This document shows, one piece after another, positions 5,082 through 53,150 of a stretch of 53,150 bases of DNA (its first letter is position 1; the number at the start of each line of letters is the position of its first letter). A program made the translations under genes and the position numbers. The notes beneath the pieces were generated by a model. It was not told the origin of the DNA and searched no databases. It saw nothing but the letters and a program-made list of their open reading frames with translations. The stretch is from Girardia tigrina. Its lineage: Eukaryota. The stretch is taken from contig MQRK01173881.1 in assembly GCA_001938485.1 (NCBI GenBank), positions 62,001 to 115,150 of the forward strand, read 5' to 3'.

Positions 5082-6280
5082 TCATAAAATCCAAACACCA
5101 CAATTTTTGTTTAATTGGCGCAATTGCATATATTGAAGACAATTAGGATTTAGAGACTCAAACATACTGAACCAAAGAAACACTTTTTCCAGACATTTTC
5201 TCACAATATCGTGACTAGAAGCAAAAGGAAAAAGTAGGCAAAGGAGATCAGCATATAAAGAAACCACATGTACGTTTGAATTATCAGAAGCTAATATATT
5301 CTTGATAATGTTAGTAGCTTTACTAAGTATTTCTTCAGAAAAAGTTGTAAAAAATTTTTTAATCTGGTCTTGGAATTTGTCATCGCTGTATGGATTGATG
5401 TCCAATTTAAGCCAGAATTCGATAACTGATAGCAAATTTTCGAGATTCCTTTGATTAGTGATCAGTAACAGTAACGTTGCTGTTTGATCTTCTGGTCGCC
5501 CCTTTCGCTCGAAAATCGTCTCGATGGTTTCAATGATTGCGGAATCGTATTTATCGACGATGAGCGATGGAATAAGAACTGTGAATATTCGATCAGTCAT
5601 TGAGAGCAACATGTCGTGTTTTATCTAGCCGCACAAGCTCTGAATGGTAATGATAGCTTCTAATGGTAGATTGATCAATACCGACTGGGGATCGACCGGA
5701 TTCGAAACTATTTCTAGACAAAAATCCATAATACACTCGAAATTGTCGATTATATACAATACAACTTCTTTTTTGCGCTTCTCAGGGGCCTGACTATCAC
5801 CAGGTAGTGTCTCGGAAAGACAATGGAGCATTGCCAAGATCACCGCTTGAGTTATTGTTCCGTCGCTTTTCAATCCGATTAAATCAACAATAAATGTGTT
5901 ATAATTCTGTGGACATTCATGTCGAATGAAATAAACCACAGATTGGCGATTATCCATCGCATAACTCTCTCGGAATCGTTATTTACCTTTATTGATTGAT
6001 ATTCCTGGATTATTTTCATCAAATAAGACTTTGTTTTATTTTTATCCGCTTCATTCCATTTATACAAAATATAATGTTCGAGACATTTCAAACCGAATAT
6101 TTTCGCTTGTTCATTTCCAACGGGGCTCAATAGTGTTTTGAAATCTTCCAATTTGTACAAATCATTTTGGAATGTATTTAAAATTTGAAAATGTTGACGT
6201 CTTTCGTCGTTCGGTAAATTCGGATCAGCTGTTTTCCATAAACTTTCAATTGCATTTTCAATCATGTTTAAATAATTCAC
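5082..6280 (-). pseudogene. Exportin-5-like (importin-beta N-terminal plus Xpo1 domain) pseudogene, intronless over about 1.2 kb
   Basis: Three ORF-track pieces join into one protein. FGLKCLEHYILYKWN resembles XPO5 FGLQILEHVVKFRWN, VVYFIRHECPQNY resembles VVEMIKREWPQHW, and ERKGRPEDQ resembles SRKGKLEDR. There is a 1-nt frameshift near 5943 and an in-frame TAG at 5625-5627; the next ORF resumes in the same frame after IKHD. Confidence 0.75.
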
Positions 6281-7643
6281 GAAAAATCAGATTTTTTAAC
6301 GAATATTTATTTGACTTCAAATTTATTTGTACACAAACAACTCTGATTATTTTTAATTTATTCAAACAAATTCCAAATTAATAATTTGATCGATAAAATT
6401 CACATAAATCAAACAAAATAATCAAAAAACACTGCTTTTTCACAAAATTAATCAATTCAACACCTGTACACAAATTCATTTTAATTAATACAAAAACATT
6501 TTTACCACCATTTTTTTCCATTTTTTCACGACGTAAAAAGAAATTGAAATTTATCACAAAACAGCAGTGTTAAACTAAAAAAATTAAATAAAATAATTAT
6601 CATATCGAATATCATAGTTAAATAATTCAATTAATAAGTAATTTATCGATTAATTACAAAATTAATAATTAATGGAAATGTTGGAAAATATTGTTAATTC
6701 AGAATACATAAAAATAAAAAAAAACTTTTGTAATTTTTCTGTTAATTCTATTGTGCAATGTTATGATAAAATGCATTATATAATTTATTTTTACTACAAA
6801 ATTATTTTTTAATGGATGGAAAAAAATTGATAGAGATTTGTTTATAATATTTTAAAATGTATTTTCCTAATAACTAATATATTTAAAAGACAATTATATA
6901 TAATTCTTCGGAAAATTGCCTGTTTTAAAGTAAAAGCATAATTAAAATTCGTGATTGAATGTTTGAGTTGATAAATTTGAGTTTCATTTAGGGATCCATT
7001 GGAGTGAGTTTTTATTATTTAGTTGGAAGCAATGTCGCAGTCAATTATTAATTGATATCCGATAGAAACCGAAGTCGGGTAGCTAAACTTCACAAAAAGA
7101 AAATAATAAATGCCTCAGTGATATTATTCGAAAATAAAAAATAATAATTTATAAAATTTGTACTCTATATTTTAATATTAGATGTTATTTTAAGAAATTT
7201 CCCTTTGTTCCTTTTTGAATCCTATTAAAGGATATTGTTAATTAGTCTTGAACCCTTCTATTAATTCAATTAATATTTCATCAAGATTTAGGACAACTAG
7301 TTACCTTTTTTTGTTATCATCAAAACATGTTGACAGTAGTTCTTTTTAAAACATAATACTATTTTTATGACTTTTTCGTTTTAAAATATTCTTTCTATTC
7401 CATAAATTCGGTGAATAGTTGTCATTTGACCTCAGTACAATTCATTCCGCAGGCAACTTAGCTCAGAAATCAACAAGTAATTCAACAAAATCTTCAAATA
7501 TTAACATAAATCTTTCAACAGATACTCATTGAATTTGATATTTATTTCATAATTATCTAGAAAATGTTTATTGATAAAGGTTAAAAAAATAGAATAATTT
7601 TAGTTAAATTATAGAATAATTTTTAATAAATTAACTTTTACTG

Positions 7644-8229: not shown

Positions 8230-10792
8230 TAATATAAATACGAATACTTAATTTATTATTTCTTTTTTTTGGAATTTACAAAATTAGTTTTTTCACATTT
8301 CTTAAATTAAAATTTTATCTTTTAAAGATTTTAATAATTTTTTTTCCTTTTAATTCATTTAAAACATTTTCATATCAAAAATATTTCAATTATCAAAGTT
8401 CTATTTTAATCACTAAGCAATTTTTTTAAATATCTTTAACTAAACTTTCCATTTTATATTCTTATAAAATTTGCATTTTATAATAATATTTAAATAATAA
8501 AATTCCCATTCTAGATTTTAATTTTAAATATTTTCAACCCTAAAATTTTATAATATTTTAATTTACAAAACATATTTTTTTACTCTAAAATATATTTCAC
8601 TATATTTTAATGCATGAAATATTTTTAAATATTTTAAAATTCCCTTAAATATTAAAATATCAAATTTTATGTGATCTCCCCAAAATCCTAACAAAAAGAA
8701 TTTGTGAAAATAAACAATAGAAATTTGAATATATAATGTAAGTGAATCAAGCAAAAGGGCGTAATTTATAATTGGAAAAACGGTAAATACTGTTAAAATT
8801 TTATAATTCAGGAAAAACTAAGAATGTAATTTGCACTCTTATTTTACGAGAGCATTTATTCATCAATGATGCTGCATTCCCGTTTATCTCATTAATTTTT
8901 GCGCCAGAAAATTATCAAAACAATCCAAATGTTTGACATCCCAACATTGTTACTATACAGAATATTATATTTAATTATAATTAAGTTTTTTTCAAAGTAT
9001 AGTTTATAAATCCCTAGGGTGTTTAAATAAGTTGTATAATAACAATATTTTTTTAATAACATTATGGTTGATCATTTAAATAAAAGTATTCAGAAAATAT
9101 TATTTATGTTTTTATAACATTATGACAATAGAGATACTAATGATTGTTGTCTTTTAATCAAAATATCTATATAGACTTTCATTCATCCTTTACAAAATCA
9201 TGAGTACTCAAATGAACAAAAATCTTTTAAAAATAATTGTGTCCAAAATATCTAAAAAATAATGACCCTTCAATAGATAGACATTTAAGATTTATATAAA
9301 CTCAGTTCATAACACTTCTAATGTTAGAAATGTGATTTGAATTTCCATAGAATGCCATGAAAAATCTACCACCGGACAGTGGTAACAGAGGGTCAGTGGC
9401 AGGTTCGATGCTCGGACGTTTTGTGCTTGACCCATTTGTTATTATCCAGACTGATCATCATTTATACTTTATCACATATATCGAATCAAAATAACTTAAA
9501 GTTCAAAACACAAAATATCGATAATATTATAAAAATTTATTAATTAAAAGATTTCCAGTCTTTTCACATCAAAATTCAGTTAGTAATGAAATTCGTCTTT
9601 TATAATCATAAATTTATCGATCAAAATAACAATAGCAGCAATAATTCGTCTTTAGATTAAATTTCGTAAAATAACAATGATAGTGAAACTCGTTTTTTTG
9701 ATTAATTTCGTAAAAAGATGTATTCATAAACTGTTATCAATCGAACAATTACAAAACTCTTATATCGGAAAAGTTTTTTTATGAAAATATATCAAAATTT
9801 TCTGATCACTCGCTCTGATTGGATGACCAATAAGAATCTAAAATTGGATAATAATAATAATCTAAATTAGATATTTTTCAATTTAATCTATTGTAATACG
9901 AACGGCAAAGTAGCAAGAATCAACAATATAAAGATCTTTAAATTGTTAATCATAAAACGATAAAGTTTCTGACATAATTAAATTGTCTTTGGATAGGATA
10001 TTGAAATATACATCAATAATAACGAAATATAAAAGATAATAATAAAAAAAAGATTATTAAAGATAATAATAATTCCGAACAAATTTTTTTACAAAAATTT
10101 AATCAAATAAGGTTTTTTCGGACATGACTATTTTCTGTGTCTTTTGAAAGATACTCCAAATTATTGTACTCACATTTTATGGGTTTTCTGCTAACAATTA
10201 TTATGATTACAAATAGTACCAAATGTGTTACAGTCAAATAGGCTAATTGATGAATATTATCGTTTTTAGATAAAATATTACAATTAAATGCAGAATTTTC
10301 AAAGACTTTCCTTTCACATTTTAGTTTAACGAAAGGCAATTTTAAATATGTTGCTTTCTTTCTCAATTTCTGGTTACTCAAAATGTGGAAATAGTTTCAC
10401 CCACTTCACTCTTGGAGGCCACAAATTCGAGGAATCAATGATGGCTTAAATAAAATTTAAAATAAATGTTTCAATAGTAAAATAAAATATTATTACTAAA
10501 GCTTTTCCATATTCAAGTCAGTAGGTGAATAAAAGGCGGAAAATATTTATTATGGAATAAATATTTTATTTTATTTTTATTTATAGTTGAATTTTAAAAA
10601 GTTCAATTTTAACCAATAAATTTATCTTTTGATTATTTAATTACAAATCGATTTCGTTATTTATAGTCTTTTTTTAGTTTTTTTTGATATTTTTTATTAT
10701 TGAATTATTTACTACTTAAAAATTGATTATTATCTTTTTTAGTCTTCTAATAATAATAGTAATAATATTAATATTAAATGTGTCAATTGTAG

Positions 10793-11124
10793 GAATCTCT
10801 AGAATAGAGACCGTGGATAAGGAGATATGTGACTTAATACGGTCGAGCAGAGAGCGTTGCGGCTGTCAGTGCGTAGCGGGCCAGTGTGTCCCAGAAACTT
10901 GTAGCTGTACTCAGAACGGTATCCAGTGTCAAGTGGATCGGGGCAATTTTCCTTGTGGCTGTGGTCCTACCCCGTGCAGCAATCCGCTGGGTAGGGTCGA
11001 ATTCAATCCTATCCGCGTCAGAACTCATTTTATTCACACAATAATGCGATTACAGATGCAAGATCAATATCAGTCAGATGAATCCACAGAAAATTATTCA
11101 AATCAGAAATTAAAAACTGTTGAG
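10793..11124 (+). CDS. CSRNP: Cysteine/serine-rich nuclear protein (CSRNP/AXUD1 family), internal exon encoding the conserved Cys-rich domain
   Basis: Translation IRSSRERCGCQC..CVPETCSCTQNGIQCQVDRGNFPCGC..PCSNPLGRVEFNPIRVRTHFIHTIMRL is the CSRNP signature. Acceptor ttgtag ends at 10792 (phase 1); donor gag|gtaaaa starts at 11125 (phase 0). Confidence 0.93.
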
Positions 11125-12310
11125 GTAAAAAAATATATACAAAATTAACTTTAAAATTAGAAATTAAGATTCATTTTAAATATATATTAATTTTGTCACA
11201 ATATTGTCAAAGATTTGCTTCTGTCAAGACTTTGTAATGGGCTTTTAAATGGGAATATTTCTAATTTAGTATTTATTTTTTTTATTTAAAATCGTTCCTA
11301 ATTGTATTGAAAAAAAAACAATTTATATCAATTTATTTTTGTGAATAAATTATTAATGTTAAGTACCCATTGAAGGATATCTCACCACTCATTTATATTT
11401 TACAACTGGACATTGCGCTGCTTCTAGCACGTACCAACCGTTTGATCCTTCCCTTTCCTATGGGACAAAACTCCATAAAAGTTAAATTATATTACAATTA
11501 AACTTATTTCGTTAATGATATTATTGTGTTAATTTTGTAATATTATGTTTACAATTATATTTTTTTCTAATTTTAAATATTTTATTTTTTTTACTTTTTT
11601 TCAGTTGAATGATTTACACGTTCCACAATTGGCATTTACTCTAATTTCTATTTATTATGCTAATTTCTGATAATATGTGTAAGAATATGTATCTAATAAA
11701 ACATATATGCATCTATTTATATTGGGAGAGTTTTCTAATATTTTTCATGTAATTCTTTTCGTCTAAAAAACCTGAATCAACGTTATTTTCTTTTGGTAAC
11801 TCGCGACCCTATGATTTATTTTGCAACCAAAGCTCAACTGGAAATATTATATCTTTTACCCGGAAGAATAATTGTAGGGTACTATTCCTTTAGATCGGAC
11901 TAATATTAATAATTTAGTTTTATAAATATATTTAATAAAGTGAGTCTCATAAAAAATATTTATAGATTAATTAATTAAAAGGTGCTTTTACTTAATGTCG
12001 TACTAAAAGAGTTGGGAAACGGAAGCTAATTTTGTTTGATTTACGATGAAGGGAAGGGAAAGTAGATTGAAAAGTTATGACGTCTGAAAATTCTGAACCA
12101 AACGCCCACAATTATTTAATTTTAATTTTTTCATTATTTTAATAAGTCTTATAATATATATCATTTGCACTAACTTTAAAAAAAACTAGTAAATCAAAAA
12201 TAAATTTTATATCCAATTTTTATGCTGGTAGAACTCTATTTGACTAAGAGAATTTTTTATCTTTTGTATAAGGGAAAATTACTATTATATTTATTAATAC
12301 TTTTTTTGCG

Positions 12311-15201: not shown

Positions 15202-16470
15202 TTAGGTTGGTCGAAAAATAATGGAGGTTTTTGAGCTTTATACTTTATCTACTTTGATATGTATATAAGTTTAAATGCATTAGTGTTAGATATTATTTGA
15301 AATCTTATGCCTAGCTGTATATTCCTATAGTCATTATTAACATATTGATGTTATTTTTTAGAATATTTACGGTGCTAAATTAATAATAGAAAAAATTAAA
15401 ATTCGAGCAATTTTCTTGTACGAATTTAAACTGGGTCGTAAAGCAGCAGAAACGGCTCGCAATATCAATAAAGCGTTTGGCAAGGGAACAGCTTCTGAGC
15501 GCACAGTGCAACGATGGTTCCGAAAATTTTCTGATGGATATGAAAACTTTGAAGATGAAGAAAGTCGTGGTCGTCCAGTTGCTGTGAACAACAACAATTT
15601 GAGGACAATGGTGGAAACAGATCCTCGTACAACAATCAGAGAACTTGCAGATGGGTTGGGCATTAGTCATTCAACAGTCCTGGATCGTTTTAAACAACTT
15701 GTAAAAATCAAGAAACTTGATAAATTGGTTCCACATGATTTGAATGAAAATCAAAAGAACCTACGCTATGAAATTTGTTCTGCCAATCATCTTCGCAATA
15801 AAAACGATCCATTTCTTGATCGTATTGTTACCTGTGATGAGAAATNNNNNNNNNNNNNNNNNNNNNNNNNNNNNNNNNNNNNNNNNNNNNNNNNNNNNNN
15901 NNNNNNNNNNNNNNNNNNNNNNNNNAAGGTTATGGTGACAGTTTGGTGGTGTGATGCTGGAATCATCCACTATAGTTTCTTGAATCCAGGTGAAACAATC
16001 ACAGCGGAGAGGTTCTGTCATGAAATTGATGAAATGCATAAAAATTGAAAACCCTTTGTCCGGGATTGGTCAATCGATAAAGTTCCATCCTTCTTCATGA
16101 TAACGCTAGACCTCATATTTCAAAAGTGACTCTTCAAAAGCTTAATGAGTTGGGCTATGAAACCCTGCTTCATCCACCATATTCACCAGACCTCTCGCCA
16201 ACGGACTTCTACTTTTTCAGGCATTTGTACAACTTCCTACGTGAAAAAAATTTTCAAAAACCAAAATGATGCTCAAAATGCCTTCCAAGAATTCGTCGCT
16301 TCAAGAACCGATGCATCTTATGCTGATGGAATAAAACAACTTGTTTCTCGTTGGCAAAAATGTATTGATGCCAACGGTTCATACTTTGATTAATAAATTT
16401 TTGTTTCTGTGAATTTTCACGTCTTTGAAGTTTATGTCCCAAAGTCGCCATTATTTTTCGACCAACCTAA
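15202..16470 (+). mobile_element. Mariner transposon, cecropia subfamily (Hsmar1-like), disrupted, with assembly gap
   Basis: TIR ttaggttggtcgaaaaataatgg pairs with ccattatttttcgaccaacctaa. Protein IRAIFLYEFKLGRKAAETARNINKAFG..VPHDL..IVTCDEK..HDNARPH..HPPYSPDLSPTDFY. Stops and frameshifts after 16048; gap 15846-15925. Confidence 0.95.
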
Positions 16471-18049: not shown

Positions 18050-18631
18050 CGAGGGGCGTTCCGAAAGTAAGTGGAAATACTTATATTCGAGTGTGCGCGT
18101 GTGTGTGCATCTTACAGAGGGACAGATGGCGTGGTGGTGTGATGTTCGTACCAGCCAATAGAAATCGAGCAAAAGTGGCATTGGTCCATGCAACATGTGA
18201 GCAGCATAGAGGAAACTGTCATAGGCAGTGTTTTCATTTTTGTTTAACACATGGAAGACGCAGTACGTTCTCAGCGTGCCATCATCTTTTTCCTTTGGAA
18301 AGAGGATACTCCAGTGTCTGATATTGTGCGCCGCTTATCAAATGTGTTTCAAAGAAGAGCCCTGCAGAAGTCTGCCGTCTACAATTGGGTGCATCAATTC
18401 GAAAATGGACGTGAATCCTTGGACGACGAGGACAGGAGTGGACGTCCAGCAACGACGATCACGGTAGAAAATGTGGAAAAAGTGTCGGAGACCATCAATG
18501 CAAATCGCTGCCTTACCATTCGCGAGTTGGCGGAGATGACAGGCCTATCTGAATGACATTGTATTCCTTCAATAAATGCTTTCTTGTGGTATCGTCTCCC
18601 TTTTTTCCACTTACTTTCGGAACGCCCTTCG
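18050..18631 (+). mobile_element. Internally deleted mariner (582 bp) retaining both TIRs
   Basis: TA at 18048-18049 and 18632-18633. TIR cgaggggcgttccgaaagtaagtggaaa pairs with tttccacttactttcggaacgcccttcg. Confidence 0.92.
18251..18556 (+). CDS. Truncated mariner transposase ORF with only the N-terminal HTH DNA-binding region (101 aa)
   Basis: QRAIIFFLW..VYNWVHQFENGRESLDDEDRSGRP..LTIRELAEMTGLS*; uninterrupted, with no DDD catalytic domain. Confidence 0.7.
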   Translation: MEDAVRSQRAIIFFLWKEDTPVSDIVRRLSNVFQRRALQKSAVYNWVHQFENGRESLDDEDRSGRPATTITVENVEKVSETINANRCLTIRELAEMTGLSE

Positions 18632-21680: not shown

Positions 21681-23310
21681 TTGAATTAATTTGTTTAAAT
21701 ATGTGAATTTTTGATATTAATAAATTTTTGTGGTGTTAAATTATGACTTCAGAATGTGATAATAATGAAAGTGTCTTAAACGCTACTTACAATGACTATG
21801 AAAACTTATTATTCAATTTTGCATACGTTTTATAACTACGGTATTATCGAGACATTTATACTCCACATGTTATACGTCGAAGTTGTCGTCTTTACAAGCT
21901 GATTATGAATAGACTCTGAGTTTCCTTTAAGTCACCTTTTATATATTACAAAAATGTATTTTATTTGTTAATTTTTAGAGTAGATTTTCCATCAGGTTAA
22001 ATGTTAATAACCATAAAATTTTCATGTCTTATTTTAGTTATTTTTTTTGAAAAATTAAAGCATGAGTAATACAAGTATTGTATGATAGTTGAGAGTATTT
22101 AATATGCATATAAATTCTTAAAAACAAATAAAAATATTTTATGTCCTTTAACATTTAGATTAAAGTTTTTTTCTCTCGGAATTCATTTTGTTTTATACTT
22201 TCTATGCGTAAGGTGTTTTAACTCTTTCGTTACCAGGAACATATGTGTACGTTTCTGCATACATGGGTCGAGAAACCGAGGAACGTATATTTTCGATTGA
22301 TGTTTTTACTGAGTTTAAAAGAAGAAAAACGTAAATAAGTGTCTTTTAGGCGCGTATAATAGTGCTGCTGTATGCATTAGTTGCCGAAATTTTATCGCGA
22401 ACAAACTTGTATTTAGAGCATTATAATAGTCCATAACAAAAGGATTAAGTAAAAATAGAGAAAATAGAAAATTGTTAATTAAAATAATTTAAAAAGAAAA
22501 TGTTTGGTATTATTAAAATGTTAGATACAACGTGAATAACATCATCCATTCAGAACAATTTGTCTTTGAGCACGATTCTGGAATGTGTTCTTCTACACCA
22601 GAGTCCCTATGTCTCACATGTTACTTCTGAGTGTGTCATAACTATTCTTTGAGTGCAATGTAATTGTGTTAATAATCTTTAAATACATTTTTTACGTTTT
22701 GCATCACCATTTACATCACCAGATATAGATTGAATCGAAGGATACAAAAACACGCGTGGATTTTAAAAAGTTCTTTAATAAATTTATCAATACAGTCAAT
22801 TAACTCTAAAATCCTATGATACTTATATGTACAATTAATGTAATATTCTATAAAATAAAAATAAATTTAAAATCTTTTCTTCAGTAACTAAATTGATATT
22901 TAAATAAACATCGAATAGTAATATTTTTTTAATAAGTCACAAGACTTATTTAAGTGAATATTATTTATATTTAATAGACTCACTCTTCTTATATAGACAC
23001 AATCCATCTCAGAACTCCGTACTTAACTGAAGCCTCATATACATATATAGATGTATATATACTCAAATTTGAAATTGAAATAAATAATTTAATAGGATGT
23101 TATTGGTGAGCTGGCTTTATTAGATTGCATTGATATGAAAATATACATTTTATTGTAATTTTTAAAGAAAATTATTGTTTTTGGAATTTTGACTTTATTT
23201 TTTTTCAAAATATATTAACTAATTATATATATATATATATATATATATTAAACATAATTTTGTGTTTGTGATGGACAATGAAATGAAAGAAATTTTGAAA
23301 AACATGATCA

Positions 23311-23350
23311 AAGAACATGTTTCGATGTTTTTACATCATCATCAGTAATT
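23311..23350 (-). ncRNA. Degenerate minimal type I hammerhead ribozyme (Penelope-like family)
   Basis: Minus strand reads aatta-CTGATGA-T-GATGT-aaaa-ACATC-GAAAC-AT-GTT-ctttg. Core and stem II are intact, stem I is mismatched. Same family as 43859-43900; (TA)n lies about 60 nt downstream (23225-23248). Confidence 0.65.
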
Positions 23351-24839
23351 ATTAAATAAATCAAAAATAATATTAAAAATTTTATTAATTTGAAAATAAT
23401 TAATTGTTATAAATAATCTGTAAAATAAATATTTAAAACCAAAATTTTTTAAACAGTTATAAAAAAATATNNNNNNNNNNNNNNNNNNNNNNNNNNNNNN
23501 NNNNNNNNNNNNNNNNNNNNNNNNNNNNNNNNNNNNNNNNNNNNNNNNNNNNNNNNNNNNNNNNNNNNNNNNNNNNNNNNNNNNNNNNNNNNNNNNNNNN
23601 NNNNNNNNNNNNNNNNNNNNNNNNNNNNNNNNNNNNNNNNNNNNNNNNNNNNNNNNNNNNNNNNNNNNNNNNNNNNNNNNNNNNNNNNNNNNNNNNNNNN
23701 NNNNNNNNNNNNNNNNNNNNNNNNNNNNNNNNNNNNNNNNNNNNNNNNNNNNNNNNNNNNNNNNNNNNNNNNNNNNNNNNNNNNNNNNNNAGATCTGGAT
23801 TATGAAATTGAAATAGTTCCTCATAAATTTGTTTCAATAATGAAAATTGTAGTAGAAATAAAAGTTTGCAAATTATGAATTCTGATTTCAATCACGAACC
23901 TAATAATTGATATTTACATTTCAAAACTAATTAACAAAACGGTAAAATAAAAAGACAAAGTTTATTTAATAAGGTCAAATATAAAAATAAAAGTGTATAT
24001 ATAAAAATTAATATATATACACCACGTATATATAAATAATAAATAAATATAAAAATAAAGTGAATAAAAGTGTCAAACATTTAACGTAAATATATTTAAT
24101 GATTAAGGTGGCATGAGAATTTATACAATATAACATTAATTATTATTCAAAATGGGTAAAGTATAACCGTATCAATACCTAAAATGTTTGACGAACATTT
24201 GGCCAGTATTATTCAATAATATCTTACTTTACTAAAACGTTATTTTTAATATTTTATAACTTGTTATTTAATTTATCAAAATCAATCCAATTTATTATTG
24301 CTAATAACGAGGTAAAAAACATTCAAACATTTCGTTTGATTACAGTGACCTTATTTGTTTTGATATAAACGATATCTTTTACAAGTTGTATTTAAAATAA
24401 AAATGGTTTTATGTTTCACATCTTCAGGTGTCCTTCATTTTTTTGTCAGGAAAATTTGATCCCTGCACCTATGATTATAGGTTAAATATATATTCAGATA
24501 AATAGTTTAGGACCTTAAAATTTGCACTACTTTGGTAGTTTTTGTCACAGTAAATTATTATCAAAGTTGGGTAGTTAAGTTCAGTGGTCATTAATGATCA
24601 GGATATTTTAAATTTTCATTTTTATTCTTTTATTTACTTCCTTCATAAAGCTTTTCATAGTAATTAAAAAGCTACATGATATGACAAACAAGTCATATGC
24701 AATATGCTATATATGCTATATGCAAGAAGGAAATATTATTTTGTCATGAAGTTAAATTTTTATTGTAGCTATATTATTATAGGTTTAATTTGTATAGTTT
24801 ATTTTAAATTATAATTATAATTTGGAAATTTTTTCAAGT

Positions 24840-26331: not shown

Positions 26332-26994
26332 CAGTGTAAGCCGCTTAATAGGACCACATTTGTCCCCAAACCCAACTGGTCCTGTTAATCGACTGGTCCA
26401 ATTAAGCGAAGTGGTGTTATTTTTTGACAAAGTACACTTTTCGAGTTGCTACAAGAGAGAAGTTGGTGGTGACGATTTCATAAGAAGGTGTGAGCTTGCT
26501 GCAGCTCTCGTCAGCAGCCAGTCTGCAACCCTCCCCATTGTGCTCTAGCAAGATTGATGTCGAGTTAGGCGACACATATACACATGCGTACCTGGGATGG
26601 TAAGTGTATGGGGCTACCACCACTAACTGTACGTTTGCTTGCAGGATACTTTTCCTTTTTCTGTGTCCTGTGTGTGTGCTACAAATGTAGCAGGTGCTCT
26701 CTGCAGCTAAAGAGATAAGAACAAATACAGTAAATACAAATTAAGTCAAGACCTGCTTCTTTGTTACGCGTGTATGTGTATGTTGATTAGGGTGGGTGTA
26801 TGACCTACGCTAAAAACACGTTTTTCATGACTTTCATGTTGTTTGAATGGTCAAACAGTTTCATGAGTGGTCCCATTAACCGACTTTTACTGGTCCTATT
26901 AAGCGGCTGCTTTAATATTCGAAACATAGGAAATGATTCGGTCCCACAGAATTTGGTCCTATTAACCAGTGGTCCTATTAAGCGGCTTTCACTG
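26332..26994. mobile_element. pogo/Tigger-type MITE (663 bp)
   Basis: TA at 26330-26331 and 26995-26996. 26 bp TIR cagtgtaagccgcttaataggaccac pairs with gtggtcctattaagcggctttcactg. Multiple tggtcc(t/a/c)attaa subterminal repeats at both ends. Confidence 0.9.
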
Positions 26995-30191: not shown

Positions 30192-30228
<37 letters not shown>

Positions 30229-30654
30229 NNNNNNNNNNNNNNNNNNNNNNNNNNNNNNNNNNNNNNNNNNNNNNNNNNNNNNNNNNNNNNNNNNNNNNNN
30301 NNNNNNNNNNNNNNNNNNNNNNNNNNNNNNNNNNNNNNNNNNNNNNNNNNNNNNNNNNNNNNNNNNNNNNNNNNNNNNNNNNNNNNNNNNNNNNNNNNNN
30401 NNNNNNNNNNNNNNNNNNNNNNNNNNNNNNNNNNNNNNNNNNNNNNNNNNNNNNNNNNNNNNNNNNNNNNNNNNNNNNNNNNNNNNNNNNNNNNNNNNNN
30501 NNNNNNNNNNNNNNNNNNNNNNNNNNNNNNNNNNNNNNNNNNNNNNNNNNNNNNNNNNNNNNNNNNNNNNNNNNNNNNNNNNNNNNNNNNNNNNNNNNNN
30601 NNNNNNNNNNNNNNNNNNNNNNNNNNNNNNNNNNNNNNNNNNNNNNNNNNNNNN

Positions 30655-30685
<31 letters not shown>

Positions 30686-31964: not shown

Positions 31965-33216
31965 TTAGATTCGGGAAAAATTAATCCATTATTTTAATTC
32001 ATTATTTATCGATCAAACAATTTCAAATTTACGCTCTTTGTCAAGGTAATATTTCACAGTAATTTCACAAAAAAAATTTTGCTTTTTTTATTCAGTTCTG
32101 AGTTACAGGGTGTTAAAAATGGAAGTTACCAAAGAAAAAATTCGGTACATTTTACAGTTTTTATTCGATAAAGGCGAAAATGCAAGCCAGGCGGCTGTTA
32201 TTGTGAATGGTGTTTATGGTGCCAATGCTGTAACAGCTAATTACATGCAATTTTGGTTTCGTCGATTCCGTGGAGGCATTTTTTATCTTAAAGATGCACC
32301 TCGCACAGACAGGCCTATCCTTGAAAATGTCGATAAAATCTCGGTAATGATCGAAGTTGATCGGCATGTTAGTAGTCGTAGCATCGCAAAGGAGCTGAAG
32401 ATCGACCACAAAACAGTTTTAAACCATTTGGGAAAAGCAGGATTCAAAAAGAAACTTGATGTTTGGGTTCCACACCAATTAACACCAAAAAACATGATGG
32501 ATCGAATTTCCATCTGCGAAGCCTTGGTCAAACGAAATGAAATCGACCCATTTCTAAACGGATGGTTACTGGGGATGAGAAATGGGAAATTGAGAAATAT
32601 TGTACGAAAACGATCGTGGTCAAAGCACGGTGAAGCACCTCAAACGGTTACCAAACCAGGACTAACGGCCAGGAAGGTTCTACTGTGTATTTGGTAGGAC
32701 TGGAAAGGAATCATTTATTATGAGTTGCTTCCGTATGGTCAAACACTAAATTCAGATCTGTACTGTCATCAACTGGACCGTTTGAAGATAGCAATTGATG
32801 AGAAACGACCAGAATTGGCCAACAGAAGAGATGTTGTGTTCCATCACGACAACACCAGACCACATACGTCTGTAGTGACTCGCCAAAAACTCAGGGAGCT
32901 TGGTTGGGAAGTTTTAATACATCCACCATATAGTCCGGACCTGGCACCAAGCGATTACCACCTTTTTCTCGCATTGCAAAATTTCCTGAGTGATAAGAAA
33001 TTTGCATCAATAGAAGATTGAAAATCGATTACTACAGTTTTTCGCCAATAAGTACCAAGACTTCTACGAGAGAGGCATTATGAAGCTACCTTCAAAATGG
33101 CAACTAATTATACAACAAAATGGTGCATTTCTGACTCTAAGAGGACAATCCGAAACATGTTAAATAAAGTTTTGAATTTCACGCCAAAATAATGGATTTC
33201 TTTTTCCCCAACCTAA
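31965..33216 (+). mobile_element. Near full-length mariner (mellifera-like) with frameshifted D,D34D transposase
   Basis: TA at 31963-31964 and 33217-33218. TIR ttagattcgggaaaaattaatccattattt pairs with aaataatggatttctttttccccaacctaa. ATG 32119 MEVTKEKIRYILQF, WVPHQL, HHDNTRPHTS, HPPYSPDLAPSDYHLF. Confidence 0.95.
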
Positions 33217-40891: not shown

Positions 40892-42200
40892 TGTAACGAA
40901 TATAAATTCAAACAATTCAATTAAAGAATATAAATGTATTTATTATAGTTACACATTCTTACCATCATAATGCACTCCCATATTTATTACTAAATCAAAT
41001 TAATCTATCACACATAACTATACCCCTCCTCTGGCGTTTGAGTTACTTGATGTTCCTTATTTATACCCTATTTGGAAATCGAATTTTAATCTGATGTGGC
41101 GAAATGAACCCGATCATCTTGTACGGTCCTTTATTTGGAAATTGTTCTTATTTCTCTTTGTAAAGTCAACCTTCACGAGTACTACTTGCCCCTCCCTGAA
41201 ATATATCTTCCTTCGAATTTCCTTTTGATATATCCTCATTTTCTCTGCTGCTGCATCCGCATTGTCCCGAACCTCTTGTGAGGAATATTTGGTGTGTGGA
41301 TGTTTTTGTGTAGTTTTTGCATGTTCAAATATTGTATGTTGATTTTGGATTGTGCCTCTCCTAACCAGATGGATTATCAATATTTAATTTTTTATAATCT
41401 GAAACTAATTTATTTAAATTTAGATTTAATATTCAAATTTTTAGTTTTTATGTTTGCAACTTTTAAATAATTTTAATGATTTTATTTTTGTAAATTTTTA
41501 AATAATTAAAATCAAATTAATGTTTAAAAATGACTATAAAAATATTTTATTTTAGCCAATCAAATTTAAATTAAATATTTTTAAATAAAATAATCTTATC
41601 AAGTATAGTTCAGATTATAATGGGAGATATTGAAAATTGATTGATGGATTCTAGTGAAAACAATAATATTGATCATCATAAAGATGATAAAAATTGTGAA
41701 TGTAATAAATGTTCTGTCAAATTTGTGAGTTCTCTTAACACCTCTGCTGTGATTTTCGTTCCCGGCACTGAATGGATGTTTATTTTCCGACTGTAAACGA
41801 TCTCGAAAGTTGAAAATTTTGTTGAATCTTTAACAGTTCTATTATGATTGAATTCAATCCGATTCAATATATCATTCCAATTTTTTCTGTACATTTACTT
41901 TTCAATGACATCGCATGAAATATCTTACTGTTCTAATCACCCATTTGATATGGTGAACTGATTTCTTGGTTTATCTGTAATTATTTCAGACTCTTACTCA
42001 TAAATTCATTCTCGAATTGTCTATCCAGGTCTGTCAAAATGCTATACGGCTTCCCGAATTTATAATTTTAAATAATTAATTAATTTATAATTTTTCGGGC
42101 TGACTAAATCAGAAGATTTTTTTACCATCAAATACAATAGATCAACGAGCAAACTTAACGTTTTACTTATTGCCAATATCCGAAGAACATTTCATTGAAT
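40892..42200 (-). mobile_element. Gypsy/Ty3 LTR retrotransposon remnant: integrase C-terminus, PPT and probable short 3' LTR
   Basis: Minus strand ILTDLDRQFEN, NWNDILNRIEFNHNRTV..STKFSTFEIVY and FREGQVVLVK..KGPY (GPY/F module). PPT agaggagggg at 41032-41023 abuts a putative LTR 41022-40892 ending gttaca. Interrupted by an AT-rich insert at about 41380-41725. Confidence 0.7.
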
Positions 42201-43139
42201 ATCAACTATATTTGATCAAACTTCTAAACTATCGTTTAGTAATTGTGAGTAAATATTCTGTGATTAAAAAAGTTAAATGTTATAACCAAGATTATTATAT
42301 TTGTTAGTTGAATTTATCTTTTTTTTCTTTTTTTTGTTCTAAACAGGTTCATCCAGCAAAGACATAGTTGGATTAACCTGGTTAGTTACTCAGTACCTAT
42401 AATATATAAAAATAGCGGATTGGTACACTCCTTCATTCGAGAAACGAAATCCATTATTTTTATACCTACTATGCAATTCTTATAATCATTCATAACACAT
42501 TGCAAGATTTATTATTAAAACAAAAACAATATTAAAACAATTTAGCTAATCACACATAACTATTATGTCATAAGAAGAATTCTGTAGCTGATAGTTTTAA
42601 TATCCCAGGCTATGGAGGATCCATTTTAAAACGTCCTATTTATTGCGCTTTTGTTAGAATATCTATAGTAGCAAAAAGACACATTCCACTAGATATGATG
42701 ATGGGAGGATGATTGATGGATAAAGAAATTACACATCTTCATTCAGTCACATTAATTTTCATATTTGCGAAAATAGAAAATTTTGCTACTTTTATCATTT
42801 TTCAAATCAGTTGATTCATTTGTAATGTCTTGTTCAGTATTTAACTATAATTTACTAAATAAGTTATGTAAACAATAAATCTAGAAATTTTGGATAAATG
42901 GATGTGAGAAATTTTTCTTTAAAGTTTTGCACCAGTAACTGGAAATGTTAGGAGATAATATTCATTATGTGTTCAAAAAGACTATCATTAGTGTGATAAT
43001 TGTTATTGTAAAATCGGGTTAACAACCTCTCCATATTTCTTGATCTCTACAATTCAATAGATGATTGAGAATGGAACTGTTTCGACTCAGTTGAGTATGT
43101 AAAGCTATTCCAGTTCGAAGATGACGGTTTGTCTCTCCT

Positions 43140-43511
43140 TCAATTGTTAAATTGAGGGTATTTTTTACTACAAATAACGTTTCTGGTTTTCTTTCTAATA
43201 AATAAAAAGTCCATTGAGTTTGAAGGCAAATCTAGTTTATCAATTTAAATGTCACAAGTGTGTAGCTTTGTACATTAGAGAGACAAACCGTTATCTGCGA
43301 ACTAGAATTAAGTTGAAACAGTTCTCTTCTCAATCATCTATTGAATTGTAGGGATGGAGAAAGTATGAAGCGTAATAGGGAATTCAAAGTTTTAAGTATA
43401 GATTTTGACAATTACAAGGAGAGGATAATCACTGAAGCATTGTTAATTAAATATTATAAACCATGCTTAAATGTTCAAAGTGATTCGTCAAATTATATTA
43501 AAATATTCTAA
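43140..43511 (+). mobile_element. Penelope-like element, C-terminal GIY-YIG endonuclease remnant
   Basis: LKANLVYQFKCHKCVALYIRETNRYLRTRIK...FKVLS..ERIITEALLIKYYKPCLNVQ..F*. Matches the VY-C-C-YIGET-R and E-LLI-P-LN signatures of Penelope GIY-YIG domains. Confidence 0.85.
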
Positions 43512-43728
43512 TTCTTAGTTTTTTTCATTTCGTTTTTTGTCTTTTTTTTCATTAAATTAGAAAATGATTTTTTATTTTTAAATTTCCAATTTTAATTATT
43601 TTAAGAATCTATTTGTTTATTCTTGTAAATTTTTAAATTAAAGTAATTAAAAAAGCCTTAAAATTGAATAATATTGCATAACTGTCTACCGCCAAAATAA
43701 AATGACTTAAATCTGAAATTTCAATCAG

Positions 43729-43765
43729 TCAACTGAAGATGTTAATATGGCGAAACTAGTATTGA
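43729..43765 (+). ncRNA. Minimal type I hammerhead ribozyme in the Penelope pLTR
   Basis: tcaa-CTGAAGA-T-GTTA-ata-TGGC-GAAAC-TA-GTA-ttga. Stem I tcaa/ttga, palindromic ACTAGT stem III, GUA cleavage triplet, followed by AATAAA; about 220 nt downstream of the GIY-YIG stop. Confidence 0.75.
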
Positions 43766-43858
43766 ATAAATGTTTAGAAAAAGGACTATTTTAGTATATA
43801 TATATATATACTTATATATTTCGAAAATATAATTTGATTAAAGCTTTTTTATACAACT

Positions 43859-43900
43859 ATTGGACATGTTTCGATGTTTATATACATCATCATCAGCAAT
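43859..43900 (-). ncRNA. Minimal type I hammerhead ribozyme with intact core
   Basis: Minus strand attg-CTGATGA-T-GATGT-atataa-ACATC-GAAAC-AT-GTC-caat. Perfect stem I and stem II, palindromic ACATGT stem III, GUC triplet. Confidence 0.88.
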
Positions 43901-44300
43901 TTTCTATTGAATTATTTGAATAATACAATTTTTCACAATTTTAATAAATATAATTTACTTTAAAAGGTGACGAAAAAATTAAACATTTTTATTTATGAAA
44001 ATATTATTGGGTAATTTTGAACTTTCTATTTGGTGAAATTCTATTTGGAATCAATTTAAATGTTTTCTTCTGATTTTAAAGAAAAATTTTAATCAACAGA
44101 CAACAATTTATCAATATGCACGATTCTGGAATGTATTTGAAATGTTTTTAAACATTTAGTAAAAATTAATTTTTAATCTATTTATTTTCATAAATAAAAA
44201 TGTTTAATTTTTTCGTCACCTTTTAAAGTAAATTATATTTATTAAAATTGTGAAAAATTGTATTATTCAAACAATTCAATAGAAAATTGCTGATGATGAT
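43886..44300. repeat. Long inverted repeat: 118 bp arms (43886-44003 / 44183-44300), 1 mismatch, 179 bp spacer
   Basis: Direct comparison of the arms. The right arm ends attgCTGATGATGAT at the N-gap 44301-44350, which is the start of a second hammerhead copy on the + strand. Confidence 0.92.
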
Positions 44301-45569
44301 NNNNNNNNNNNNNNNNNNNNNNNNNNNNNNNNNNNNNNNNNNNNNNNNNNATATATATATATATATATATATCAAGAGCGGATCTTAAATTAAATTTCAA
44401 ATTTAAACATAGAACATTGTTGCAGGATTGAGAAGTTTTGCAACCAAAATTCAAATTTTATTTGCTCCCAACGTTTCGTTTTTTAAATATAACTTTCTTA
44501 AGAGTTCAATAATCTAATGAACCATAAGGTCATATTCATTATATGACTTTATATGACATTATAAGAAAATGCACCAAGATTTCATACCAAACATTTACTT
44601 TTATTTAAGTAAAAGGTCACTATTCGGCTACACTGTTCTATCTCTTTCTTTTATGTCAGGAGTCGTTCTTTTTTTATTCACCTCGCATGTTCACTGTCTT
44701 AAAAATAGTGCAGGAAAATTTTAGTTTGATATTCGCGCTAAAACGTTTACTGATTTTTTTACTTCCCTTGCTACATAGAAATATTGTATTCGAAAACTAT
44801 TGAAAACTTTCCATTTTTGAGGTCTGTGCAATTCAAAACACTCGTTTTTAAAAAATGTCGGTCTGTCTTTCTATCTGTGAACATAAAACCAATAAATAAA
44901 TTTATTAATAAAATAAATTGTAATTTTATATGAAACATAAAATTTAATTTTTGGGAAATAATAAATAAACTAGAAAATTATTTTGTAACTTTTGTGTAAA
45001 CATAAAACAAATCAAAAATGATATTAATTCATAAATTTCACATTAAAATATAATTGCTTTAAGACAAAATAAAAAATATAACTCCATAAAAAAGGATTAA
45101 ATGAAAACAATTAAAAATATAATTTTCAATTTTTTGAGCAATATAATTTATTCTTATTTTTTAAAAGTACACTTTATTTTATGTAAAAAAGGGTAATTTA
45201 AAAGTTGTTAAATTAAACGAAAATTTCGATTTTTTAATTTTTTTTTCAAAACGTTATTTTATCAAAAATAAAAGTAATTTTTAAACGATTATGAAAACGA
45301 AATGAAAATGTCATTGTATAGAAGGGGGAAATATAATTAAGTAACGGTTAAATTTAAATGTATTAGAAAACGGAAATTTAATAAAAGATGTAACAAAATC
45401 TTTGTGACAAAATTTCAATAAAATCACCTTATAATTTTTTACTAAAAAAGTATAAAATTTTAATTCGTAATAAATGAAATATATTTTAAATTATATATAT
45501 ATTTTTATTTATAATGGTTTGTGTAAAAAGAAAGTGTGAAAGTTCATCGAAAATATTTGTTTAAAAAAC

Positions 45570-45838
45570 TTAAATTGTTATAGAAATCAAGTTTTGCGTT
45601 AATGACTTATTCTCTTGATCAAGAACCCAATAATCATAATTATTATTTATCTGATTTTTGTCGCTATTTATTGTATTTAATTTTTCACTTTCCATTTCCA
45701 TTTTAATTAATTTATCGACAGTTTCACGAATTAATTTTTCAACTATCGATTTCGAATATCCATTTTTATGAGGCGAATCCATAAACTTATCAATACTTTC
45801 ATTGCATTTAGCGCACGTAGACGAAAGTGTCCAAGATC
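45570..45838 (-). mobile_element. Penelope-like RT, C-terminal (thumb) part
   Basis: RSWTLSS..ESIDKFMDSPHKNGYSKSIVEKLI continues in frame from 52579-53150 once the hAT and one TSD are removed. Confidence 0.85.
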
Positions 45839-47016: not shown

Positions 47017-48148
47017 TTAGGTGTAAAAGTATGAAATGCGGATTTCAGAAAACGGATTGTGCACAATGCAAAAAGTAGGTCAATGGTTAGGCAATGATGT
47101 CATAATATTGAGTAATTATGTAGTGTCTCATAAGTAACTCATAAATTGATAAAGCGTTTTAATAATTGTTGTATTTCTGTGTTTTAGATGTCCAATTTAT
47201 GCCAAGCAGGGAGCATTCGCGGACGGTACTAATTTTTTGTTACCATCTAAAGAAAACTGCTGCTGAATCATACCGATTACTCCAAGAAGCTTATGGTGAA
47301 TATGCCCCATCGNNNNNNNNNNNNNNNNNNNNNNNNNNNNNNNNNNNNNNNNNNNNNNNNNNNNNNNNNNNNNNNNNNNNNNNNNNNNNNNNNNNNNNNN
47401 NNNNNNNNNNNNNNNNNNNNNNNNNNNNNNNNNNNNNNNNNNNNNNNNNNNNNNNNNNNNNNNNNNNNNNNNNNNNNNNNNNNNNNNNNNNNNNNNNNNN
47501 NNNNNNNNNNNNNNNNNNNNNNNNNNNNNNNNNNNNNNNNNNNNNNNNNNNNNNNNNNNNNNNNNNNNNNNNNNNNNNNNNNNNNNNNNNNNNNNNNNNN
47601 NNNNNNNNNNNNNNNNNNNNNNNNNNNNNNNNNNNNNNNNNNNNNNNNNNNNNNNNNNNNNNNNNNNNNNNNNNNNNNNNNNNNNNNNNNNNNNNNNNNN
47701 NNNNNNNNNNNNNNNNNNNNNNNNNNNNNNNNNNNNNNNNNNNNNNNNNNNNNNNNNNNNNNNNNNNNNNNNNNNNNNNNNNNNNNNNNNNNNNNNNNNN
47801 NNNNNNNNNNNNNNNNNNNNNNNNNNNNNNNNNNNNNNNNNNNNNNNNNNNNNNNNNNNNNNNNNNNNNNNNNNNNNNNNNNNNNNNNNNNNNNNNNNNN
47901 NNNNNNNNNNNNNNNNNNNNNNNNNNNNNNNNNNNNNNNNNNNNNNNNNNNNNNNAAAATGGGTCGATGAATGGTTCTTGGAAAAAAAGGAAGACTTTTA
48001 CTGGCGAGGTATCCACAATTTGAGATATAGATGGGACAAATGTATCATTAGTAATGGAGCATATTTTGAATAAACCTTTTTTTATCGTTCTTTTTTTTAA
48101 CGTATTTCTTTTCAAAATTTAATCCGCAATTCATACTTGTACACCTAA
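47017..48148 (+). mobile_element. Mos1-like (mauritiana subfamily) mariner nested in the hAT; centre lies in an assembly gap
   Basis: TA at 47015-47016 and 48149-48150. TIR ttaggtgtaaaagtatgaaatgcggatt pairs with aatccgcaattcatacttgtacacctaa. RTVLIFCYHLKKTAAESYRLL resembles the Mos1 N-terminus; ends RWDKCIISNGAYFE*. Confidence 0.92.
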
Positions 48149-50243: not shown

Positions 50244-51900
50244 CAGTCCACCCTCGTTTCCGGGGCATTCTTTATGGTGGGGCACCTTGATTTCTGGGTA
50301 AATATTGGTTTTTGGGGCAAGTTTTAAGATAATCACACTATTACATATTATTTATATTGTGTTTTTATTCCAAAAGTACAATTAATTTTCGTTTTTGGGG
50401 CATATTTTTTAACCTAAAAATAATATTTAATCTTGGTCTGAAATAAGTATCAAAATTTCCCCAAATTTAAAATATTACAAGCTTTTTTTAAAAAATAATT
50501 GTAGTGTTCACTAAATCGCATAAAAAGTAGCAACCAAATAAGAGTTTTTTAGTAAAAATAAACTTTTAGTATTCTATTAATTAACTGTTTATTTTTTTAA
50601 CTTGTGCTTTCGTTAAACATTATGCCAACTAACAGAAGTCCAAATCGTTATTAATTGAATATTATTACAAAAATATTTCTAACTTGGTGATAAGAAATTC
50701 ATTCAAAAAGTTAATTTGAAAGTAACTAAAGACAAAGGGGCCGAATTTTATTATCGGATTGTTGTTGGAAGTGTGTGGTAATTTATAAAGAAAAAGCATT
50801 AAGTTTGGAAACACGAGACAAAAAAAACAACAAAGGTAAAGTCAACCTGTGTATTCTAACAGTTGGATAGACATGGTTTATTAAAATGACAACTTGATAA
50901 CAAAAAATGAACAGCATAATAAAATAAAAAATCAATTAACGATGAAAAGCTTGTATTATATACAATGATCATTTGATTGTAACTTAATTTTATATTAAAT
51001 TTTGTAAAAAAAACATTATACTCAATAACGAAAAAACTAATAGCGAGCGAAAAATTTGAAATTGCGAAATGTTTGAAGGATGAAAAAACAACAGAGAGAA
51101 AATTAATTGAAAAATTTTCTACAAGTAAAGGTGCCATTTTTAGAATTAAAAAGAATTTAGACAATATTCTTAACATTTGGGATAAAAGAAAATGTGACAA
51201 ACAAAAATCAGAAGAAACTATGAAAGAAAATCCATTTAATAAATATAAAGAGCTTAATGGTTTGGTCTTGGAAGTTTTTAATCGCCTAAGATCTTAATCG
51301 AATCCATTAAATGGAACGATAATCAAAACCATCGATGTGAAAATTGCAAAAAAAACTTGGATTAGAAAACTTCAAGGCGTCTAATGGGTGGATGGAGAAT
51401 TTTAAAAAACGGAATAAATTTGAGTTTAAACGAATTGCCGGTGAATCCAAGATCTGCTGATTTGGAATATTTAGATGAATTTTACGATGTTCTTAAAACA
51501 AAACTTGGACAATATGAACCTCGGGATGTGTGGAATTGCGATGAAACAGGACTTAACTATCTGAACCCTCCCTCAAAAAGTTTTGTCGCACCCGATGATG
51601 ATTGTAGAGGTATTAAAGTAAAAAAATAGAGAGTTACCATATTATTTTGCTGTAATATGTGCGGAGATAAAACGGAACTTCTAGTAATAGGCAAGGCAAA
51701 AAACCGAGGTGTTTTGGTGGGTTTGACCCAAAATTCATAAAAATAAATTATGGACACTCAATAAAGGCATGGATGTCATCAAAAGTTTTAAAAAAATGGT
51801 TAATTAAAATTAATAATGAGGTGGAAGTGGAGAAATGGAAAATTTTAATTATTTTAGATAATGCACTATCCCATCCGAATATCCAACTTTCGGCAATAGA
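50244..51900 (+). mobile_element. pogo/Tigger (CENP-B-like HTH plus DDE_1) transposon, 3'-truncated
   Basis: TA plus left TIR cagtccaccctcgtttccggggca at 50244. Decayed transposase at about 51020-51900: FKASNGW..FK.R, VWNCDETGL, RVTILFCCN..GDK..LLVIGKAKN, KAWMSS, ILIILDNALSHP. Right TIR absent. Confidence 0.88.
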
Positions 51901-52578
51901 GTCAAAAATTGTTTCCGGGAAATCAAAATTCAATGAATTTTCTTTTAGTTAAATCAATCTCTTTTCGACTAATCAATTCGATCCTATTAATTGCTGTAGC
52001 AATTCTTGCAGTACGAGTGCGTTGAAGAAACAGATTGTGACGAAGCACTGCGACGATTCCTTGAACAATGTTCCCTTGACCTGTGGGACGGTTGAGACCG
52101 GTCCTTTTTTGAGAAAGAAACTGAACTTTAATATGAAATTGAATAAACACAAATCGAATAAATATATCTCATCTTCCTCTGAGATACAACAAGGGGGCAA
52201 AATCGTAAATGATCTGAACTGTTATTGTGATTTTTTTTAATTTTGTTAAATTTTTATATATAATTTTGAAAATTTTTTATTTAATAAATAATTTGCTAAA
52301 ATCATAGTAATAGTTCTGCATCAACTTAAATAATACCCGCACCAAGAAGCATATCGTTATTTCGGATATTATTTGTTTTTATAAAATATTTTAAAATAAA
52401 ATTAAAAAAATATAAAATAATACTATTATTTTAAGTAGAATGTGTTTTATTTGAATAGTTAGTTTGGTAAACGAAATAACAATAATAACGCTGTATAATT
52501 ATGCTTTTACTAATTTTCTATTTTTTGTCTAAATCAGAATCGCCCTCCCCATAGAATCATAGTCTAGATCCGCCCCTG

Positions 52579-53150
52579 CCAAGATCTATAGATCAAACCT
52601 GTTATCATATTTCTTTTATATTTGGATTAGAAAAAACTGTTAGTTGTATATAACCCTGTATCAGTTTTCTTTCTATAGATCCAGTTTCAAAATAATCATT
52701 TTTCTATCCTTCTATCAACAGATCTAAGAATGGTACAACATGATTGTTTTCATATTCTACCGTTAATTTAAATTTGAATGTAAGGAATTCATATAATTAA
52801 AGAAAGGTGCAACTTGTTATTTATAATCAAACATTAGAAAAATATCATCTACATAACGTTTATAAATTCTAGTTTTAATACCATCATATAAACTTATTTT
52901 CTCTTCAATCTTTGAAAGAAATATCGAAGCTAAATTTGGACCTGGTGGAAAACCGATAGCTACCCCCATAAACCTGTTGATATCATTCATTATTAAATAA
53001 AAATCGTAAATTCAATGTAGCAAAATACAACTGTAAGTAGCGTTTATGCCACTTTCATTATTATCATATTCTTGAGCCATGATTCAACACCACAAAAATT
53101 TATTAATATAACAATTCACATTTCTAAAACAAATTTTCCTGTTAATTTAA
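52579..53150 (-). mobile_element. Penelope-like reverse transcriptase core, degenerate, running off the window end
   Basis: Minus strand YQQVYGVAIGFPPGPNLASIF, IYKRYVDDIFLMF, VPFLDLLI, YRKKTDTGLY. Confidence 0.88.

Follow-up and report, generated by a model that had tools for sequence, protein, structure and literature searches.

The fold-back structure at positions 43795 to 44372 very probably consists of two pseudo-LTR ends of a very abundant, endonuclease-bearing Penelope-like element (PLE), likely laid down head-to-head by a single insertion event in a TA microsatellite, and likely dead on arrival. The window, by which we mean the whole stretch of 53,150 nucleotides of Girardia tigrina DNA that was analysed, is AT-rich animal DNA with several mariner remains.

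Layout of the locus and its hammerhead motifs

The features of the locus and of its left neighbour are as follows.

43202 to 43794, plus strand: separate older PLE 3′ end, with a frameshifted GIY-YIG C-terminus (43202-43508), a 3′ UTR and a hammerhead core (43733-43761)
43795 to 43810, no strand: (TA)8 microsatellite, the likely target, common to the 3′ end of the neighbouring PLE
43817 to 44015, minus strand: left arm, a nearly whole PLE pseudo-LTR (3′ UTR, hammerhead, first 17 codons)
43818 to 43867, minus strand: PLE ORF start, with the ATG inside hammerhead stem III and a match to the N-terminus of protein P0091
43859 to 43900, minus strand: minimal type I hammerhead, as a sequence motif with predicted cleavage
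44016 to 44029, no strand: left junction filler; the letters of 44024-44033 recur exactly at 44039-44048
44030 to 44167, no strand: spacer, a piece of a separate high-copy repeat; the right edge is approximate
44160 to 44182, no strand: right junction filler, in which 44160-44175 is a perfect 16-nt palindrome
44183 to 44300, plus strand: right arm, an inverted pseudo-LTR copy of the same subfamily as the left arm
44301 to 44350: assembly gap of 50 N directly after the right arm
44351 to 44372, no strand: (AT)11 microsatellite that likely forms the second half of the target

The inverted repeat pair occupies 43886-44003 and 44183-44300, with 118 nt in each copy, 179 nt between them and a single mismatch, at 43914 (arms 99% alike). 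Length, inversion, mismatch and separation of the arms, as well as the bounding TA runs, agree with an initial annotation of this DNA. However, the left arm overlaps the hammerhead instead of following it as annotated, and the first 12 nt of the annotated 179-nt spacer are still arm, the left-arm family sequence being 43817-44015. Comparison of the arms shows a head-to-head inverted 5′-truncated copy, the 5′ end of the right arm being 12 nt shorter than that of the left. The description of the insertion as recent is plausible with one mismatch in 118 nt.

The TA runs flank the structure on both sides, and the 3′ end of the right arm falls within the gap together with any target duplication. 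From the left arm, the gap is predicted to contain the 27 nt that the hammerhead lacks, together with part or the whole of the 3′ end: 27 more letters would close helix I of the plus-strand motif and 69 would mirror the left arm, compared with 50 N in the assembly. Closing the gap with reads had been suggested as a check; contigs of the organism from four runs were placed over the region and 44301-44350 stayed open. The gap bin has a depth of 0 because repeats were skipped in contig placement.

The minus-strand motif comprises CUGAUGA, one extra U, a 5-bp helix II, GAAA, a palindromic 6-nt stem-III region, a GUC site and a 4-bp helix I. At motif level it has the extra base at 9/10.1, the G10.1-C11.1 pair and the palindromic stem III listed in the available part of PMC4209133. 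Cleavage is predicted after 43863, and the palindromic stem III predicts that a dimer would be needed. A search with hammerhead models had been proposed; Rfam gave no hammerhead at the gathering score or at E up to 10, and the isolated motif folded no better than shuffles (z -1.1). For these reasons the identification is based on the core motif and its context, and the annotated intact minus-strand hammerhead stands as a minimal core (43900-43859) without an Rfam match or an excess of folding. On the plus strand the helix-I strand and 11 core letters are sequenced (44286-44300) before the gap begins. The annotated plus-strand hammerhead was thus not confirmed: of the proposed pair, one per strand, half is observed and half is a prediction.

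Helix-I pairs 1 and 2 covary across families: each is paired in 37 of 46 contexts against a shuffle mean of 28.7, a count reached by 1 and 0 of 2000 shuffles, respectively (the sequences are related, so this is not a probability). Pairs 3-5 did no better than shuffles. The covariation of the first two pairs suggests that selection likely acts on the motif in these families' parent elements, with pairs 3-5 adding nothing to this. The hammerhead core pattern was found in none of the viral contigs searched. A loose hammerhead-like match at 26471-26514 failed a stricter scan.

Parent family, abundance and surroundings

A core-pattern scan of metagenome contigs gave at least 119 loci; the 119 listed are 98 distinct ones. 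The left arm (43817-44015) aligns with one of them, L108 (175-381), at 81% over 209 columns. This match lies directly after the stop codon of an ORF for reverse transcriptase (RT) and endonuclease, and L108:1-156 encodes the last 52 aa of P0057. P0057 (536 aa) has an RT domain (RVT_1, E 2e-11) together with GIY..YIG and CCHH motifs, as in PLE endonucleases. Pfam GIY-YIG at E 0.05 matched neither P0057 nor P0091; it matched the aligned relative P0060. The endonuclease was called from the proteins' own motifs and from the alignment with P0060. P0091 (836 aa) belongs to the 90% cluster of P0057, and its N-terminus corresponds to the residues coded on the minus strand from 43867, with 8/8 and then 11/11 residues identical around a 1-nt frameshift. 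Because the stop end of L108/P0057 and the start of P0091 both map to the arm, each arm is a pseudo-LTR of a Penelope-like retroelement, in which the 3′ UTR is followed by the hammerhead and the first codons. An ORF with RT plus, at its C-terminus, a GIY-YIG endonuclease (the latter recognised by motifs) next to the repeat is the arrangement of endonuclease-positive PLEs. The DKG motif, the CCHH finger and the lack of a CX2-5CxxC linker finger are Penelope/Poseidon traits under the definitions in the available part of PMC8557442, as aligned by eye.

The left arm breaks about 15 nt past the position of the ORF stop and, at its other side, ends at the short 3′ end of the family. An optional tail of 30-40 nt is absent from it; the extension in L108 is about 24 nt, and the corresponding end of the right arm is in the gap. 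The further 3′ extension of L108 lies in frame with the ORF. Both arms share identical indels relative to L108, and an 18-nt segment of L108 is absent from both. Being 81% alike, L108 may come from another species. The PLE family of the arms may already be included in the supplements of PMC8557442.

Contigs from four of 24 runs of the organism (X1, X2, X3 and X9) were placed on 42900-44600. On the unique flank the summed contig depth was 115 in X1 and about 52 in X2; on the arms it was 0.7-1.9 million in X1, about 10,000 times the unique flank, depth not being equal to copy number. This excess of four orders of magnitude indicates that the arms are a very abundant repeat. At 44015, 67 X1 and 52 X2 contigs depart from the window and continue like L108 toward the ORF stop, and loose ends at 43904 come from contigs with the 18-nt segment that both arms lack. 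Since the L108-type variant is thus found in the same runs, the two arms represent one subfamily among several. Contigs from X3 and X9 cover the arms and not the unique flank; the kind of these runs is guessed at best, so this coverage is no evidence of transcription at the locus. To the right of the second TA run, 44373-44600 is a repeat of moderate depth (about 6,000-52,000 in X1).

The spacer is repeat DNA separate from the arms. Its summed depth is about 1.0 million in X1, contig pieces begin at 44030 in X1, X2 and X9, and none of the longest pieces listed starts before that position. In X3 and X9, loose ends leave the spacer into other sequence on both sides, at 44030 and 44167. Family members mostly continue differently at the edges of arm and spacer, and the arm-spacer joints of this locus were crossed by none of the contig pieces listed (19278 further pieces lie outside this list). 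The spacer matched neither P0091 and 13 fellow cluster members, nor Pfam in six frames, nor the 119 listed metagenome loci; a protein search with one reading frame gave no match, and a 24-nt pattern from it occurred in no viral or prokaryote contig. A faint likeness to the pre-RT part of other PLE families is too weak to place it there, the profile score of 6.3 bits being equalled by 3 of 300 shuffles. A presumed likeness of the spacer to mariner or piggyBac motifs was supported by no search. A 36-nt stretch at 22554-22589 is 83% alike to the spacer and may belong to the same repeat.

Both junction fillers copy nearby DNA, and in this AT-rich context the copies are no more than suggestive: close 10-mer repeats like that of the left filler start at 21 of 51526 window positions, and six perfect palindromes of at least 16 nt occur in the window outside TA runs.

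A third, different hammerhead (43733-43761, plus) lies just outside the left TA run, and the decayed PLE to which it belongs ends at that run. The endonuclease end of this older element was matched by profile search and not by word search; against P0002, on which Pfam finds GIY-YIG, tblastn gave E 1e-30. In the window, a TA run follows 33-65 nt downstream of all three minimal hammerheads, two of which share one run, while 1.8% of positions would show this by chance.

Several other observations were made in the window. In the older relic (43036-43794), which is from another PLE family, helix II differs by two changes, at 43742-43743, from nearly all placed contigs, and an inverted endonuclease fragment 86-90% alike lies 5′ of it (43037-43138, minus). 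The third PLE-type hammerhead of the window (23314-23345, minus; region 23224-23790) is 65 nt from (TA)12, beside a 320-N gap, and its helix I does not pair. At 30196-30682, a TA run, a 426-N gap and another TA run are possibly a further repeat insertion in a microsatellite. Decayed PLE fragments with RT and thumb, of the P0017 family, are present at 52579-53030 and 45696-45836 (minus). Host genes are represented by an exportin-like sequence (Xpo1, IBN_N; 5082-6286, minus) and a CSRNP exon (Pfam CSRNP_N; 10720-11148, plus). Remains of mariner or other DDE transposases lie at 15362-16069, 18248-18556, 32050-33021, 47166-48073, 51671-51952 and 41114-41894, the last of which, by eye, we take to resemble a decayed LTR-retrotransposon integrase.

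Among the matches listed, 3 of the 119 metagenome loci carry two outward-facing hammerhead cores, spaced by 109, 466 and 587 nt. A looser count of inverted copies (11 of the 71 loci with 300 nt upstream) mixes in flank repeats and duplicate loci, and we therefore rely on the stricter one. L114 contains a 614-nt fold-back at 96% whose arms start in the last codons of a PLE ORF, and both L114 and L079 have the optional tail at one end only. In the family of L114 the core lies after a GIY-YIG C-terminus in L060 (Pfam E 0.001, which misses the curated cut-off) and ahead of an RT-type ORF in L009. Three other head-to-head joints with fillers of 22, 15 and 4 letters occurred among contigs of two DNA runs at a depth of 54-149; their sides are 24-35 letters where shown, which is weak in repeats. 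Two loci are of separate note: L071:2154-2555, which shows the same core pattern, resembles a retrozyme tandem in having three hammerhead cores on one strand at a spacing of 184 nt, and L047:289-422 is a compact 134-nt fold-back with one complete hammerhead and an inverted partner that lacks the CUGAUGA half.

Origin of the fold-back

The initial annotation proposed a non-autonomous ambisense mini-element, with arm, spacer and arm copied together and each strand's hammerhead doing the processing. We consider this most improbable, even though the geometry is as described, the arms are near-identical, the spacer is high-copy too and covariation holds for helix-I pairs 1 and 2. Whichever strand is transcribed, the transcript would also end in a pseudo-LTR, and pseudo-LTRs are described in the available part of PMC3846280 as moving cargo in trans. 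Contigs nevertheless exit at 44015, 44030 and 44167 into other sequence, and no listed long piece crosses a joint; one hammerhead per strand would give one cut and excise no unit; no tandem array is present at the locus, and covariation stops at the second helix-I pair. In PMC4209133, as far as its available part goes, the minimal hammerhead tested was uncleaved as a monomer and weakly cleaved as a dimer. Folding of the known letters of the minus transcript gives an unpaired probability below 0.001 for the CUGAUGA core, and the predicted cost of imposing the hammerhead fold is 4.8 kcal/mol in a lone arm but 27.4 in the fold-back. The long hairpin foreseen for a transcript is thus also predicted here, but a read-through transcript would hide its hammerheads in it. 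By analogy, the locus is a possible source of hairpin siRNA, as reported for inverted Penelope copies in Drosophila (PMC3681739, available part). A bolder idea, to which we give very little credence, is that the family protein re-inserts the arm-spacer-arm cassette from both polarities, since the pseudo-LTR at the end of each transcript would bring the RT start site with it, making the cassette a MITE-like two-way non-autonomous PLE with a captured repeat that feeds hairpin small RNAs against its parent.

Alternatively, two separate insertions, both from one young subfamily but oppositely oriented, could have come to flank an older repeat fragment within a hot spot rich in TA. The abundance of the family, a different PLE that ends at the same left TA run and the TA runs near all three hammerheads of the window speak for this, yet both arms share their indels relative to L108 although the L108-type variant occurs in the same runs, their 5′ breaks are just 12 nt apart, and insertions made separately should have left a TA target on the inner side as well, where there is none. 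We regard a double insertion as very unlikely. That the inverted arm is an assembly or amplification artefact seems extremely improbable. It does stop at a gap, inverted PLE structures trouble short-read assemblies (PMC8557442, available part), and the contig pieces listed give no read support for the arm-spacer joints; against this, the arms differ at one base and in the 5′ break, nearby sequence is copied in the fillers, comparable fold-backs with a tail on one side are present in unrelated assemblies, and two DNA runs contain other head-to-head joints.

A single head-to-head insertion of a truncated PLE could be explained as follows. The PLE endonuclease would cut the AT-rich target; the available part of PMC11167929 describes purified PLE protein as cutting AT-rich DNA on both strands. 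Reverse transcription would begin just downstream of the hammerhead and halt after about 200 nt; in the same source it starts at two sites just inside the ORF, and hammerhead cleavage is not required in vitro. Next, a fragment of an unrelated repeat would be captured, either by end joining or by template jumping. The same event would also yield the second arm, whether the first cDNA snapped back and was copied or synthesis was primed from the opposite cut strand. Accessible sections of PMC8557442 give inverted 5′-truncated copies and one-sided tails as typical of PLEs, and those of PMC3846280 describe capture of unrelated DNA between pLTRs and palindromes at inverted junctions, read as self-priming. 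The palindrome at the junction and the nested 5′ break incline us slightly towards snap-back copying; the data do not separate it from two-ended priming, since run-off at the RNA 5′ end also gives matching breaks. The hammerheads would be passengers of the pseudo-LTR. The background given in the initial annotation, that hammerheads occur in Penelope pLTRs and that inverted pLTRs are known, agrees with this evidence, and its own alternative of a one-off inverted Penelope insertion is what the evidence favours.

One truncated inverted PLE insertion has little weight alone; what it offers is a way into a very abundant PLE family for which a relative of 836 aa is already recorded. The available part of PMC8557442 names as open questions the construction of inverted PLE ends and the preference of PLEs for microsatellites. 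Snap-back and two-ended priming could be told apart from the family's many head-to-head joints. An association with TA, based on three ends in one window, occurs here in a family without the linker zinc finger proposed as the cause of the bias.

Comparison with known systems

With animal non-LTR retrozymes (PMC7229834; bioRxiv 10.64898/2026.07.22.740005) the locus shares small size, non-coding character, a type I hammerhead and relation to PLEs. In the available parts of these accounts retrozymes are defined by a tandem array, with head-to-tail repeats, same-strand hammerheads and released circles, whereas the units here are head-to-head with one hammerhead, or part of one, per strand. A viroid-like ambisense RNA would need a ribozyme that folds in both polarities of its circle; here half of the second motif is unsequenced, and the hairpin is predicted to bury the core. 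No animal ambisense fold-back retrozyme was found in the published literature at the level of titles.

Closer parallels exist in Schistosoma mansoni, for which the available part of PMC4209133 describes dual minimal hammerheads on opposite strands, 100-700 bp apart, as probably truncated PLEs. Opposite strands are common to both (about 390 bp apart here, with the second motif half sequenced), as are the extra base before helix II, G10.1-C11.1, a short helix I and a palindromic stem-III region; helix II has 5 bp here against 7-8 bp in S. mansoni. PAc, a Poseidon element of Anolis (PMC11167929, available part), shares the hammerhead overlapping the ORF start, AT-rich targets and two 3′ ends about a tail apart, the latter seen here in the family (L108). 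The ATG lies in stem III here, as read from the DNA, and at the start of stem II in PAc.

The inverted, 5′-truncated insertion units of endonuclease-positive PLEs, in the accessible sections of PMC8557442 and PMC3846280, have in common with the locus the head-to-head pseudo-LTRs, a pseudo-LTR over the first ORF codons, an optional family tail, a palindrome at the inverted junction, captured unrelated DNA, a TA target and an assembly gap. The locus differs in having no ORF body between its arms and a spacer from a separate repeat. Overall, it is a new instance of a known pattern, an ordinary truncated and inverted PLE insertion in a TA hot spot.
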